A DNA stretch of 8,500 bases from Promethearchaeota archaeon (GCA_027031765.1 JALVPN010000122.1:1-8500), one strand, 5' to 3'; positions 3,076 through 7,647 are shown, counted from the first letter of the stretch. The notes: generated from the letters alone by a model not told the origin. Translations and numbers: made by a program.

Positions 3076-3441
3076 ATGCAGACCAACATGCCATTACTTG
3101 GCGGCTTTGTGACACTCATCATACTGATGTTTGTCATCATGCTGCTCGTATATGCCGTGCTCCTCGGTATCGCGCTTGGCTTTGTCAATGGTGAGAACCG
3201 TGAGCTTGGGACAACCTTCGTGACAGCACTCTTGATTGCAATCGTTTCAGTGATACCCATACTCGGGTGTATACTGGCATGGTACTTCATCAAGACGCGT
3301 CACAACGTTGGGTGGGGCGGCGCGATTGCCGCGTGGCTTATCGTGTTCATAATCGCGGTAGTCATTCTCTTGGCAATCATCTTACTGCTGGCGCCCGGGC
3401 TACTTGCCCTGATGTCAAACCCCGCGCTACCGACACCATAG
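3076..3441 (+). CDS. Small hypothetical integral membrane protein (3-4 TM)
   Basis: 121 aa, almost entirely hydrophobic, with short polar loops (NGENRE; KTRHNVGW). ATG start with AGGAG SD. Confidence 0.85.
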   Translation: MQTNMPLLGGFVTLIILMFVIMLLVYAVLLGIALGFVNGENRELGTTFVTALLIAIVSVIPILGCILAWYFIKTRHNVGWGGAIAAWLIVFIIAVVILLAIILLLAPGLLALMSNPALPTP

Positions 3442-3561: not shown

Positions 3562-4170
3562 GTGTTCGACCGCGGTGCGGTGCTCGGTCGCCCCCTTGCC
3601 TTTCTCAGGCTGTCTGTGCCTCTTCTGACGGCCCACCATCCTTTTTGTGATGCCTTCTCGGGGCACACTTTTACTTTCCTCGGCAGGAAGTGGTGCATCG
3701 GCTGTTTCTTCAGTTCTATCGCCTTTTTCTCGACACTCCCAGCGCTCCTCTTCCTCTGGAGTGGCCAGTACCTGTCCCTCACACGTGACATGTTCTACCT
3801 GACCGCTGCGCTCGCTGTGGGTGGCTCGTTCTTGATGAGTGCAACGGGCGCGACGGAGCACCGCGGTGTGAAGGCCGTGGCAAAGGTACTCCTCGGGGCG
3901 GGCTTTGCCTCCTTGGTCGCGGGGGTGCTGGTCTCCGGTGGGGACATCGGGTACTACCTTGTGGGCAAGCTGGTAGTCATCGTCATCCTGTACCTTCCAG
4001 TAATCACACTGATGAACGTCAGGCGGTACCGTGAGATTGAGTCGGTCTGCGGTACCTGTGAGCATAGGATGCGCTGGAGCACCTGCCCGGGTTTCGGTGA
4101 CCTCGTCTGTGCGTACTTCACTGCCGGCTTCCTCCGCCTGACCGACGACGTACCACAATTGGACGACTGA
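3562..4170 (+). CDS. His/Cys-rich membrane protein, putative metal-binding (loosely DUF2085-like)
   Basis: HHPFCDAFSGHTFTFLGRKWCIGC precedes about 4 TM helices; the C-terminus carries CGTCEHRMRWSTCPGFGDLVC. The start is uncertain (frame is open from 3442). Confidence 0.8.
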   Translation: MFDRGAVLGRPLAFLRLSVPLLTAHHPFCDAFSGHTFTFLGRKWCIGCFFSSIAFFSTLPALLFLWSGQYLSLTRDMFYLTAALAVGGSFLMSATGATEHRGVKAVAKVLLGAGFASLVAGVLVSGGDIGYYLVGKLVVIVILYLPVITLMNVRRYREIESVCGTCEHRMRWSTCPGFGDLVCAYFTAGFLRLTDDVPQLDD

Positions 4171-4317
4171 CGTCAGTACTCTGTGGGCCTGTGAGCATGT
4201 GTGAGCAGTCCGCGGTCACGCTGGTTCTCTCCCTACCGGGCGGTCACCCAGCTCCGGACATCAGGCAACACAGAAAAGGCAGGGTGTTCACGTCTGACAT
4301 GCTGGGAGGTACGTTGC

Positions 4318-4995
4318 GTGCAGTATGAGGAGGTCATGCGCAGACTGGCCAAGCTCGCCGACCCTGTGGTACAGCAGGGCATGGCCCGGGCGGGCATCAC
4401 CCCCGAGAAGGGATTTGGTGTCACGCTCCCCCGACTCCGGAGCCTCGCACGGGAGGTCGGCACAGACCATGAGCTGGCCCTACAGCTGTGGGCAGCCGGC
4501 TACAGGGAGACAAGGATACTCGCCAGCATGGTGGACGACCCCGGACAGGTTACCGAAGAGCAGATGGAACGCTGGGCCAGCGACTTCGACTACTGGGAGA
4601 TCTGCGACCAAGTGTGTCTGAACCTCTTCATCCGGACACCCCACGCGAGAAAGAAGATATTCGAGTGGGCCCAAAGAGATGAGGTGTTCATCAAGAGGGC
4701 CGCCTTCGCAATGATTGCATTCATGGCCTCCAAAGGGCGGGTGGCTGACGACAGCTTCTTCGAGCCGTTCATCCCACTCTTCCTCGCCGCGTCCACTGAC
4801 GACAGACCAATGGTCAAGAAGGCTGTGAGCTGGGCGCTCAGGAAGATTGGCAAACGCAGTGTGGATATGAATTTCAAGGCCTGCGAAGTCGCACGCATGA
4901 TCCAGGCGCTCGACACAAAGAGTGCCAGGTGGATAGCATCAGACGTACTGCGGGAGCTGACCAGCGACACGACTCGTGAGCGACTGAAACGGTGA
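4318..4995 (+). CDS. DNA alkylation repair protein (AlkD-like HEAT-repeat glycosylase family)
   Basis: FGVTLPRLRSLAREVGTDHELALQLW...RETRILA...WASDFDYWEICDQVCLNLF...FIKRAAF...DDRPMVKKAVSWALRKIGKRS is the typical family pattern. GGAGGT (4305-4310) lies 7 nt before GTG 4318, so the track start at 4201 is probably too early. Confidence 0.92.
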   Translation: MQYEEVMRRLAKLADPVVQQGMARAGITPEKGFGVTLPRLRSLAREVGTDHELALQLWAAGYRETRILASMVDDPGQVTEEQMERWASDFDYWEICDQVCLNLFIRTPHARKKIFEWAQRDEVFIKRAAFAMIAFMASKGRVADDSFFEPFIPLFLAASTDDRPMVKKAVSWALRKIGKRSVDMNFKACEVARMIQALDTKSARWIASDVLRELTSDTTRERLKR

Positions 4996-5203: not shown

Positions 5204-5698
5204 TTATGAAAGCCCGACAACTAGAATTGGGACGTGAATTGCGCTCCGGACAAACGGCAAGTAGCGCGTGGCCTTCTCAAATGTGAGCCTCCCCGACCAC
5301 TTCCTGCCCCGCTCCTCCATCTCCTTCAGGAACTCCTTTGTTGCCATTACGTAGATGCCAACATCAATCTTGTCAACACCAGAGTACGAGCCCACTTGGA
5401 ACTTCAACAGGTCAATCCCAATGAATGACGCATGACCAAACTGGACCTCCACTCCGACACGGCTCTTCATAAAGTCGAACCGTGTTTCACCCTCGCCCCT
5501 CCCGCCAAAGACGGACACTTGCGACTGCCAGCCCAGCGCCTCCAAACGGGTACGGATGGTGCTGTTGAGGTCTCGTGTTGAGATGCCGGACTCTGGTACT
5601 CTGATGTCCCTCAAGACATCGAGGATTTCATTTTTTACATCTAGCCTGCTGTTCAGGATTTCATCCGCGAACCGGTAGTTGTATGTGACTATGTGCAA
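5204..5698 (-). CDS. BglII/BstYI-family type II restriction endonuclease-like protein
   Basis: RFDFMKSRVGVEVQFG has D-x8-E-x-Q, the BglII catalytic arrangement (D84/E93/Q95) with Q in place of the PD-(D/E)xK lysine. Also DLLKFQ, IDVGIYV, and the C-terminal TFEKA..YL......VPILVVGL. Probable start is TTG 5698 (MHIVTYNYRFADEILN); the track start is 5719. Confidence 0.85.
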   Translation of the reverse strand: MHIVTYNYRFADEILNSRLDVKNEILDVLRDIRVPESGISTRDLNSTIRTRLEALGWQSQVSVFGGRGEGETRFDFMKSRVGVEVQFGHASFIGIDLLKFQVGSYSGVDKIDVGIYVMATKEFLKEMEERGRKWSGRLTFEKATRYLPFVRSAIHVPILVVGLS

Positions 5699-5728
5699 CT
5701 CTCTCGTGGTCGAGAGCACTCGGTGCAG

Positions 5729-5743
5729 TAATCAATATTTCTC
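5729..5743 (-). promoter_or_regulatory. Possible BRE/TATA-like element for the endonuclease gene
   Basis: Minus strand GAGAAATATTGATTA, an A/T island ~31-45 nt upstream of TTG 5698. Confidence 0.35.
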
Positions 5744-6088
5744 CACCATGTGTGCAGTCTACGCAGAGGATGAATAAACTACAGGTGGCCCCGTGCCTTT
5801 GGTCGCCGAGACGTGAGAGAGGCATAGGGTGAGATACCTTGGCCCCACCATTCCGCCAGTGTTGCGTCGCAGATCCAACAAGGTCGGGGGTCTATGTGAA
5901 GCGAGGGCGGAGGTTGTGGACTGGGAAACCCCACGAAGGGCGTCAGAACGCATCGGCATCCTGGGTGAGCTCTAGAGGGCCTTGCTGGGCACCAGTCCGG
6001 GGTTGAATGGGCGTGTCCTGCCCGGCCATTGATATGAGACTCATCGGACATGCTACAGGGTCTGATGGTGAGCTGTAGGGGGACAGGG

Positions 6089-6137
6089 ACAACGTCAGAA
6101 GAGGAGGAGCTGCAGGAAGCATAGCGTCTGACGTTGT
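6089..6137. repeat. Perfect 11-bp inverted repeat with a 27-nt spacer
   Basis: ACAACGTCAGA (6089-6099) ... TCTGACGTTGT (6127-6137). Confidence 0.8.
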
Positions 6138-6140
6138 GGA

Positions 6141-6233
6141 CTACATGCCTGGTACATTTCCCTCCCTCCGGATTCGTAGAAGTGGACAGCGTGTGCAAGA
6201 TGGCCTGTATCGCGTGCACACCTCTTGGATGGT
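6141..6233 (-). pseudogene. Endonuclease III/MutY-type Fe-S cluster loop (FCL) remnant
   Basis: An unlisted minus frame reads TIQEVCTRYRPSCTRCPLLRIRREGNVPGM*, matching C-x4-P-x-C-x2-C-P-L of the FCL motif (CX6CX2CX5C). The fourth Cys is Arg, and no HhH motif or good start codon was found upstream. Confidence 0.4.
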
Positions 6234-6444
6234 GCTGCTGCATGTGCGGCATGGTTGGTTCCGGTGTCCTCTTGATGGAGCCTTGGACTCTTCCCCACAT
6301 CTGCTCAGAGTTGCCTCTGCGCAATGGGACTGAACTGGCCACTGGATGGGACTCGGTACCGGACTGTGCAGCCCCGCACCAGACGCAGCTCAGGGGCACG
6401 GTCCTCCAAGCACAGCCAATGGGACTGGAACAGCCTAGGACACC

Positions 6445-7371
6445 CTAGAGGGAGCTCTCGCTCGTGAGAGGCCTCTGTGCACCGTAGCCTGTCATGCACT
6501 GGTGCTTGCAGTCTGAGCATCCTGTCGCGCACTGGGGGAGTCTAGGGTAGAGGGTTCCAGCACTGAGCCATCTATGATCCGGGCGCCCAGAAACATATGA
6601 TATGTGTGGCACGTATCTCGTGTGGTGGAGAAGCTTCCAGACCGGATTGGTCTTCATTATCCGTGCCGGTTGTTCAAGTACGGGCCCAGACTGCGCCATC
6701 GCGTCTTGGGTGTCCCACAGCTCACTCTCAGGGAGGAAGGCAAATGTTACAAGGCGCGTGACCGCGACACCGCCCATCTCAGAGTACATTTCCAGCACCT
6801 TGTTTCGTACTGACTGAAAGCCTCTGGTGTCGAAGGCACACAGCGTTACGTGTAACCTCGTATCAGCATCTAGCAGGCGCTGCAGTGTTCCTCTTGAGGG
6901 CGCTCTCCACACTCGTGTGAGGACTACAGGTATCTTGTCGTGGGCGGCGACAATCTCAGCCACACGGGCTGTGGTCACCCAGTCGAAGCATGGGTCTCCG
7001 TTCACCCCAATCCTGACCCACCCGACGTCAAGTCGCTGCAAATCTCGCGAGAGAACCAGTTCGTCCAGAATCATGGGGACGGGGACGTCGAATATGATGT
7101 GAAACCTACGTGAGGCCTCTTTTGCGTAGCAGCCCCACCAGCATCCATACCCATTGTTTGTCCGTCCACCAGTGCACCCTCTGACAGGATCAAGACAGTT
7201 GCCCCAACGTACCACCCTTCGGCCTGGGGGACGCGACATGCTATCCGTGCTCGCGGTCTTGTTCGTACCAAACAGCCTGATACGCACCCGTTTGTAGGGT
7301 GCATGCGGTCGTCCTGATGATACCACCTCTCCCACACTACTCTGGTGTCCCATCTCAATGTTGTGCCTCAT
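6445..7371 (-). CDS. Non-canonical radical-SAM-like Fe-S protein (SPL/DUF5131-like fold)
   Basis: LDPVRGC-x10-C-x3-CYA (7176-7129) resembles the NPxxGC...CYA start of SplB-like/DUF5131 proteins. It is followed by VRIGVNGDP, VVLTR and VTLCAFD barrel strands, and a C-terminal CATGCSDCKHQC (6531-6496). Start is ATG 7371 or 7353 (TAATATA at 7399-7393); the Cys-rich extension to 7575 in the track is probably not translated. Confidence 0.75.
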   Translation of the reverse strand: MRHNIEMGHQSSVGEVVSSGRPHAPYKRVRIRLFGTNKTASTDSMSRPPGRRVVRWGNCLDPVRGCTGGRTNNGYGCWWGCYAKEASRRFHIIFDVPVPMILDELVLSRDLQRLDVGWVRIGVNGDPCFDWVTTARVAEIVAAHDKIPVVLTRVWRAPSRGTLQRLLDADTRLHVTLCAFDTRGFQSVRNKVLEMYSEMGGVAVTRLVTFAFLPESELWDTQDAMAQSGPVLEQPARIMKTNPVWKLLHHTRYVPHISYVSGRPDHRWLSAGTLYPRLPQCATGCSDCKHQCMTGYGAQRPLTSESSL

Positions 7372-7392: not shown

Positions 7393-7399
7393 TATATTA
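7393..7399 (-). promoter_or_regulatory. TATA-like box for the radical-SAM gene
   Basis: Minus strand TAATATA, 22 nt upstream of ATG 7371 and 40 nt upstream of ATG 7353. Confidence 0.4.
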
Positions 7400-7647
7400 G
7401 CAACCCAGTTTCTGAACTGCAGGTTCCCACAACACGAGTGGCCTGAGAGTCTTGATTGGAACAGGTACGAGTGCCTTCGAAACGGTCGTAGTATGCAGCA
7501 GCATTCAAGACATGGACAGCAGGCAGCAGAACAAATGAGAGCATACCGCCTTGCAGCCCCGGGACTCTGACGCACAGTAGGCCCCTAGTCTCGTCAGTAT
7601 GGACTCGATGGCAGGAAGAAGGGTGACATGGCGAGTCCGTGCACAAA

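Follow-up and report, generated by a model that had tools for sequence, protein, structure and literature searches.

A radical SAM-fold protein of an uncurated mobile and viral lineage in a Promethearchaeota archaeon, possibly acting on DNA beside a BglII-type nuclease

Radical S-adenosylmethionine (SAM) enzymes are usually recognised by a CX3CX2C signature or by the Pfam model PF04055. An 8,500-nt stretch of DNA from a Promethearchaeota archaeon (GCA_027031765.1, JALVPN010000122.1:1-8500; the whole stretch is called the window below) raises the question of whether a protein with a far wider cysteine spacing is an enzyme of this kind, which of its two cysteine motifs would bind SAM, and on what it acts. 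The protein, P0001, is encoded at 6445..7371 on the minus strand (308 residues plus stop), its coding sequence being indicated by the open frame, homologues, a structural model and fold matches. A preliminary description had read from the sequence the motifs C-X10-C-X3-C-YA and C-X3-C-X2-C-X3-C, and both are present exactly as it gave them, in a gene on the minus strand. We place P0001 in the radical SAM superfamily, in an uncurated lineage that is nearest to DUF5131 by sequence and to spore photoproduct lyase (SPL) by fold and belongs to neither. It is very probably a SAM-cleaving radical enzyme. The wider interpretation, in which a functional-looking radical SAM enzyme of an uncurated mobile and viral lineage has DNA as its substrate and is here the partner of a BglII-type nuclease, has in our estimate about an even chance of being correct.

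Superfamily membership and the SAM-binding site

The AlphaFold (AF2) model of P0001, built from an alignment of 16 close homologues (A1), was of good quality (predicted local distance difference test, pLDDT, 83; predicted template-modelling score 0.83), and its strands and helices alternate over residues 63-270 in a partial barrel of the radical SAM type, as the preliminary description had predicted with its partial triosephosphate isomerase barrel. The best Foldseek matches of the model were all radical SAM enzymes, at weak significance (E ~1e-3). An exhaustive comparison with VIA-align put SPL (4fhc_A) first, with Z 13.7 and a root-mean-square deviation of 3.7 Å over 223 residues, and viperin second (Z 12.0, 1.7 units below SPL), followed by about 40 further radical SAM enzymes down to Z 8. 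The nearest models in the ESM Atlas were viral clusters without a Pfam family (template-modelling score 0.73), some of them 740-residue "methyltransferase" fusions, and next came clusters named "SPL family radical SAM" (0.60-0.62).

Sequence searches gave P0001 no Pfam match at E 10, and searches of PHROGs, PADLOC and the PDB, the last by sequence and by profile, were also blank. PF04055 was reached by three of the 67 wider relatives gathered in a second alignment (A2), all below threshold (best E 1.3e-4; P0055 at 18 bits against a cut-off of 29.5 bits). The only NCBIfam match of P0001 was to TIGR04471, radical SAM mobile pair protein A, over residues 76-104 (13 bits, E 0.05; cut-off 355 bits). 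Assignment to that family was rejected as falling below the cut-off, and the tandem-paralogue habit of the relatives is an analogy only. The placement of P0001 in the superfamily thus rests on the fold matches, the weakly matching PF04055 relatives and a profile match to DUF5131 described below. The expectation that the protein would fall outside characterised families was borne out, since Pfam, NCBIfam, PHROGs and PADLOC do not cover it, and the literature searched held nothing relevant on CX10CX3C-type spacings or on radical SAM genes of Asgard viruses. The superfamily is known; the lineage, the CX(6-11)CX3C spacings, the Cys4 tail and the nuclease linkage lie outside the curated libraries and the literature searched.

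A word-indexed search returned the 16 close homologues (38-59% identity), none of them named or with a Pfam domain, and an exhaustive HMMER search of 1.8 billion representatives extended the P0001 family to 141 clusters. The first motif, VRG-C66-TGGRTNNGYG-C77-WWG-C81-YAKE (C66-X10-C77-X3-C81, codons at 7129..7176, minus strand), occupies conserved columns and contains the proposed ligands of a SAM-cleaving [4Fe-4S] cluster. The second, Q-C281-ATG-C285-SD-C288-KHQ-C292-M (C281-X3-C285-X2-C288-X3-C292, codons at 6496..6531, minus strand), is a putative accessory Cys4 metal site. All seven cysteines withstood the conservation check among the close homologues: C281, C285, C288 and C292 are invariant and C66, C77 and C81 at least 90% conserved, with the first spacer three residues shorter in two of the 16. 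A third element, G122-V-N-G-D-P127 (6991..7008, minus strand), follows strand 2 of the model and corresponds to the GGE-type motif, which contacts SAM from the same position in radical SAM cores; it is the proposed contact of the SAM amino group. In A1, R120, I121, G122, V123, G125 and P127 are invariant, and the acidic position of G-x-x-G-[DE]-P is D or E. In the profile comparison with DUF5131 described below, this element pairs with MGDP.

Among the 67 wider relatives, G65 and C81 are invariant, C66 and C77 are at least 90% conserved, and D61, R120, P127, W131, Q222 and R237 are nearly invariant. The first spacer of the triad ranges from 3 to 11 residues in this set: the same alignment columns hold CX10CX3C in 17 members, CX6CX3C in 17, CX9CX3C in 6, CX11CX3C in 6 and the canonical CX3CX2C in 6, besides a few other spacings. 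The CX3CX2CX3C tail is kept across the broad clade of P0001, including members with the canonical N-terminal motif, and is absent from the CX6CX3C and CX11CX3C clades. Neither the CX3CX2C signature and PF04055 nor PHROGs and PADLOC pick up the 141-cluster family, so that lineages in which the cluster loop is stretched and the second spacer is X3 belong to what is still unrecognised in the superfamily. The series X3, X6, X9, X10 and X11 within one family also offers a system for studying how much loop a SAM-binding cluster tolerates. One member, P0016 (L040:629-1657; also in L039, L041 and L049), carries an 18-nt insertion whose first codon is an in-frame TAG, directly behind the third cluster cysteine (GC*AKSPPYAKEA). 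Contigs of several samples share the identical sequence, for which a pseudogene, a recoded TAG and a small insertion are the possible explanations.

The preliminary description had left open which site binds SAM, since the C-terminal motif itself contains a CX3CX2C. Homology decides for the N-terminal triad C66/C77/C81 as the predicted site, given its loop position, its alignment with canonical CX3CX2C members and its match to the DUF5131 triad. In the model it lies between strand 1 (63-65) and helix 1 (82-88), and strand 118-121 directly precedes G122-x-x-G125-D-P127. The C-terminal Cys4 is read as accessory because four ligands within 12 residues leave no free iron and because half of the family lacks it; it could be an auxiliary [4Fe-4S] cluster or a Zn(Cys)4 site, so that the protein may have one cluster rather than the two proposed in the preliminary description. 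We infer cluster binding and SAM cleavage along the following lines. The three N-terminal cysteines, on the enlarged loop between strand 1 and helix 1, would hold a [4Fe-4S] cluster with one open iron, which would bind SAM with the aid of the G-D-P motif, and reduction of the cluster would yield a 5'-deoxyadenosyl radical. The C-terminal Cys4 would hold a second, fully ligated metal centre (auxiliary Fe-S or structural zinc) that is unable to bind SAM.

It might be argued that P0001 is a decayed or non-catalytic relic, whose stretched loop no longer holds a SAM-competent cluster and which serves as a metal-binding structural or regulatory factor. The lack of any radical SAM profile match, the low pLDDT (59) of the inserted loop at residues 71-80 and the many fragments and pseudogene-like copies in related genomes fit such a view. 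Against it, the frame is intact and of full length, and among homologues of 38-59% identity invariance extends over the triad, the GDP motif and about 26 other positions. Each of the spacing variants is maintained in large clades, which points to selection on a working site. We therefore regard a relic as very unlikely.

Nearest known families

By sequence, the nearest family is DUF5131 (PF07505, phage Gp37/Gp68). When the 67-member profile was compared with an Asgard DUF5131 protein by hhalign, the match reached 88% probability (E 3e-6) over 69 columns, in which D-x-V-x-G-C, a triad ending in C-Y-A-[EK], and W-V-x-I-x-x-G-D-P pair up. The CX6CX2C spacing that the preliminary description gave for DUF5131 was confirmed on this one protein. 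Both families are uncharacterised, associated with phages or mobile elements, and have a non-canonical triad. They differ in that P0001 has CX10CX3C rather than CX6CX2C, the DUF5131 example lacks the CX3CX2CX3C tail, and the similarity was detected in the N-terminal third only; the PF07505 model was matched neither by P0001 nor by any of the 67 relatives. DUF5131 "three-Cys-motif" proteins are often paired with TcmP, and a scan of ten partner and fusion proteins revealed no TcmP-type partner.

By fold, SPL (SplB, 4fhc; PF20903) is the best solved match and is a radical SAM enzyme that works on DNA. The sequence identity to P0001 is 12%, SPL has the canonical CX3CX2C, and it has no C-terminal Cys4. 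There was no Pfam match to PF20903, and an hhalign comparison of A2 with an alignment of 24 SPL sequences was insignificant (0.5%). The earlier label "SPL-like" therefore holds for the fold, where SPL ranks first, and fails for the sequence, where DUF5131 is nearer. An SPL-like radical SAM enzyme that remodels a base within DNA is known from phage M6: its gp53, a glycinyl-thymine isomerase, has a canonical CX3CX2C (CTVGCAFC) and is encoded in a cluster with a 5-hydroxymethyldeoxyuridine kinase, aGPT-Pplase (a glycine:DNA transferase) and a pyridoxal phosphate-dependent decarboxylase (PMC8989533). We found no other published case in which radical SAM chemistry installs a DNA modification. By description, gp53 and P0001 are both virus-linked and SPL-like, and none of the gp53 partner genes was seen in the census of family neighbours described below.

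A third resemblance came from language-model features, for which the top match was gp88 of mycobacteriophage L5 (PF17338, GP88; 0.95, 194 of 256 features). This uncharacterised phage protein (L087:2664-3383) has CX6CX3C-YAG followed by R-I-H-W-D-G-D, like the CX6CX3C clade of the family, and differs in having CX2CX2C rather than CX3CX2CX3C at the C-terminus. The GP88 profile gave no Pfam cross-match and only 6% with hhalign, and the resemblance is a lead at the level of motif and language model, not an established kinship. The large GP88 phage family may itself be an unrecognised radical-SAM-like lineage.

Distribution and gene context of the family

The closest homologue of P0001 (59%) is in a metagenome-assembled genome (MAG) of Candidatus Thorarchaeota, and others are in MAGs of Hadarchaeales and Methanobacteriota. 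Eight of 36 genomes of the same taxonomic family had matches, with up to six per genome, among them fragments and copies with in-frame stops. In several genomes paralogues stand in tandem pairs, with one member of an A type and one of a B type, and the two types fall in separate clades; one genome has three copies of the pair. In the Thorarchaeota-family genome G002, contigs C19, C96 and C67 (L022, L023 and L024) hold three cassettes, each combining the A-type and B-type paralogues with a conserved protein of about 490 residues; the 493-residue partner showed a weak HEAT-repeat resemblance only. Distant relatives stand on virus-like contigs that are rich in short unknown genes and also encode integrase, MCM, Ku, ATP-dependent DNA ligase and DNA methylases, and relatives were also found in IMG/VR contigs of up to 188 kb and in viral Atlas clusters. 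A tblastn search with three family members against 50,697 GenBank phage records gave no match. The family is thus borne by mobile elements and viruses, in MAGs of Asgard and other archaea, in metagenomic viruses and in defence islands. The mobile or phage origin that the preliminary description had suggested is supported by the virus-like contigs, the IMG/VR and Atlas hits and the pattern of multiple, tandem and fragmentary copies. The family is concentrated in mobile elements of Asgard and other archaea and in uncultured viruses, settings in which few enzymes are understood.

Gene context suggests that P0001 may act on nucleic acid. Relatives of P0001 are fused to N6_N4 methylase, ATP-dependent DNA ligase, TauD and amidohydrolase domains, and methylase genes adjoin family members in contigs L031 and L039-41. 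A Pfam census of 105 neighbours at 24 loci recorded C5, N6/N4, Dam and MT-A70 methylases, Mom, dUTPase, helicases and polymerase parts. On this basis we consider it an evenly balanced question whether P0001 acts on DNA; if so, it would most probably make or remodel a base modification that is relevant in virus-host conflict. The recurrent fusion or adjacency to methylases, ligases and a restriction-type nuclease makes the involvement of radical-based modification or repair of DNA in such conflict a concrete proposal that is open to test.

Repair rather than modification would be the role if P0001 were an SPL-like DNA repair lyase, reversing a lesion with the 5'-deoxyadenosyl radical and carried by viruses and mobile elements as one of a set of repair functions that includes Ku and ligase. 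SPL leads the solved structures in the fold comparison, the gene of the viral clade adjoins or overlaps those of ATP-dependent DNA ligase and Ku, and one relative is fused to a ligase domain. However, the SPL profile comparison was insignificant and SPL is ahead of viperin by less than 2 Z units. In addition, elements with the family gene can also bear a canonical SPL-family gene, as in L034 and in G002:C67, where a PF20903 gene lies 3.8 kb beyond the cassette, which argues against the same job, and the clade of P0001 itself is linked to a nuclease and not to Ku and ligase. A repair lyase is accordingly judged unlikely.

The second place of viperin in the fold comparison (Z 12.0) suggests a different substrate, namely a free nucleotide or small molecule, with P0001 as a viperin-like defence effector or signal maker and the nuclease separate from it or a downstream effector. 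The defence-island settings and the TauD and amidohydrolase fusions are consistent with this possibility. Nevertheless, the gene occurs frequently on viral contigs and in Atlas clusters of viral origin, the methylase and ligase fusions point to polymeric DNA, and the neighbour census contained no nucleotide kinase or similar partner, so that we consider an effector of this kind improbable, more so than repair.

RNA or peptides are the substrates of many radical SAM enzymes that have an accessory cluster, and RimO, MiaB, Cfr and maturases of ribosomally synthesised and post-translationally modified peptides are among the fold matches at Z 8-11. P0001 might therefore modify RNA or protein (for example, by methylation or thiolation of tRNA or rRNA), with its DNA-related neighbours incidental to life on mobile elements. 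This is slightly less probable still, as P0001 has no RNA-binding (TRAM, PUA) or peptide-recognition domain, its family's neighbours offered no precursor-peptide or tRNA context, and the fusions are to DNA enzymes.

The BglII-family nuclease and the setting of the gene

Modification of DNA, rather than its repair, gains a possible counterpart in the window itself. At 5204..5719 on the same minus strand, 725 bp downstream of the radical SAM gene, lies a gene for a BglII-family nuclease of 171 residues (Pfam Endonuc-BglII, E 6.9e-31) with the triad D-X8-E-X-Q, which we take to be the equivalent of D84/E93/Q95 in BglII. In a maximum-likelihood tree, P0001 falls in a four-row clade (Shimodaira-Hasegawa-like approximate likelihood-ratio support 99) with L008/L031 (Thorarchaeota), L033 and L036. 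A BglII-family gene stands within 2.5 kb of the radical SAM gene on three of the four contigs of this clade, the fourth contig being 2.3 kb long, and it does so in three layouts: on the same strand with the 725-bp gap in the window; convergent and 14 nt apart in L033, where the nuclease is 60% identical to that of the window; and on the same strand with a 687-residue N6_N4-like methylase in between in L031, where the nuclease is 29% identical. The nuclease family is rare in the lineage (2 of 61 related genomes), and the D-X8-E-X-Q triad is present in the nucleases of the window and L033a.

The arrangement resembles a type II restriction-modification system of the BglII/BstYI/BamHI fold in that a nuclease with its triad lies downstream and the trio in L031 includes a methylase; it differs in that no methylase stands beside the nuclease in the window or in L033. 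None of the nine open reading frames (ORFs) of the window matched a methylase family in the Pfam scan, and the L031 methylase had no tblastn match in the window or in the rest of the contig to which the window belongs. In the archaeon of the window and its nearest relatives, the enzyme might supply the modification activity of a restriction-like defence or addiction module whose nuclease is the adjoining BglII-type protein, and in viruses it might alter the viral genome alongside DNA methylases. We put forward only tentatively that P0001 is the modification partner of the nuclease. Somewhat more speculative is the specific proposal that it installs a non-methyl or carbon-centred base modification as a "self" mark for the nuclease, shared with viruses as an anti-restriction measure. 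Both DNA as the substrate and any protective role are inferences. If true, Asgard archaea and their viruses would share a restriction-modification-like system with a radical SAM enzyme as its modification subunit.

Several points weigh against this interpretation. With regard to the enzyme, P0001 itself fits no radical SAM model, an X3 second spacer is unusual among SAM-binding clusters, and no radical SAM protein is known to serve as a modification subunit. With regard to DNA, no single conserved partner emerged from the 105 neighbours of the 24 loci, and the fusion of other clades to TauD or amidohydrolase suggests small-molecule substrates there. With regard to the nuclease, there was no BglII-like neighbour outside the four-member clade, and the BglII-like proteins of L031, L033b and G007 lack the D/E/Q triad. 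The conventional-looking methylase between the two genes in L031 could be the real partner of the nuclease, adjacency in L033 may merely reflect clustering because that contig is a defence island, and the genome of the window (G000) has other methylases elsewhere that could protect it.

The island in L033 (L033:1-6503) holds the radical SAM homologue, two BglII-like genes, a MORC-like ATPase (HATPase_c_3), an ApeA-like HEPN protein (R-x4-H) and two copies of a 59-residue AbrB/SpoVT-like regulator. A 464-residue protein of L033 was considered as a methylase placed like the radical SAM gene and was rejected, as it resembles an ApeA-type HEPN protein. On contig C12 of genome G007 (L047:8379-13852), a triad-less BglII-family protein stands beside a dndA/dndC/dndD phosphorothioation cluster, with a cysteine desulfurase, an SMC-like ATPase and a 3'-phosphoadenosine-5'-phosphosulfate reductase protein that has an Sp-DndD domain (PF20306); this type of nuclease therefore keeps company with non-methyl DNA modification in these archaea. 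AGATCT occurs 220 times in G000 (observed/expected 0.71), and palindrome statistics do not reveal the site of the nuclease. In the same genome GATC is under-represented (3794 observed against 9138 expected; 0.415) and CTCGAG is the most depleted hexamer palindrome (0.46), which suggests past or present restriction pressure at those sites.

Between the nuclease gene and the radical SAM gene lies a 725-bp spacer (5720..6444) without a recognisable gene: its ORF at 5779-6399 matched no Pfam family, and the spacer had no Rfam match. The idea that it holds a degraded methylase was dropped, since neither protein nor DNA similarity to the partner genes of related loci was found, including the 687-residue methylase of L031.

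The frame of P0001 is of full length and intact from the ATG at 7371, and the longest ORF over it reaches back to a GTG at 7575 (376 residues), in an extension that is not conserved. The homologues in A1 begin about 20 residues ahead of the block RPWEPFK...IRLFGTNKT, which gives the same length as the product that starts at 7371. A candidate archaeal TATA box, TAATATA, was read from the sequence at 7393..7399 on the minus strand, 22-28 nt upstream of this ATG, and would fit an archaeal promoter with a leaderless or short-leader transcript beginning near 7371. The start positions of the homologues and the position of TAATATA favour ATG 7371 over GTG 7575 as the start.

G000 is a MAG of 2.95 Mb that is 95% complete, and the window lies on its contig C122. 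Among sequencing runs, the window was found in a hydrothermal vent metagenome only, probably the source sample, and no RNA run was listed. The GC content of the radical SAM gene (0.569) and of the nuclease gene (0.529) is below that of the genome (0.592). An attempt to set the boundaries of an insertion by synteny was abandoned, because DUF1028 was the sole neighbour of the locus to be conserved in three relatives.

Other genes of the window were also noted. A gene for an AlkD-like HEAT-repeat DNA glycosylase (4201-4995) is convergent with the nuclease gene; it is patchy among relatives, with pseudogene-like copies in genomes G004 and G045, and it was dropped as a part of the module because elsewhere it is unlinked to the P0001 family. 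Between a ChrB_C-domain gene and the AlkD-like gene, the ORFs at 1519-2505, 3076-3441 and 3562-4170 have no family match and encode hydrophobic products that are probably membrane proteins. At the window edge (1-675) there is an XPB-type helicase with a damage-recognition domain.

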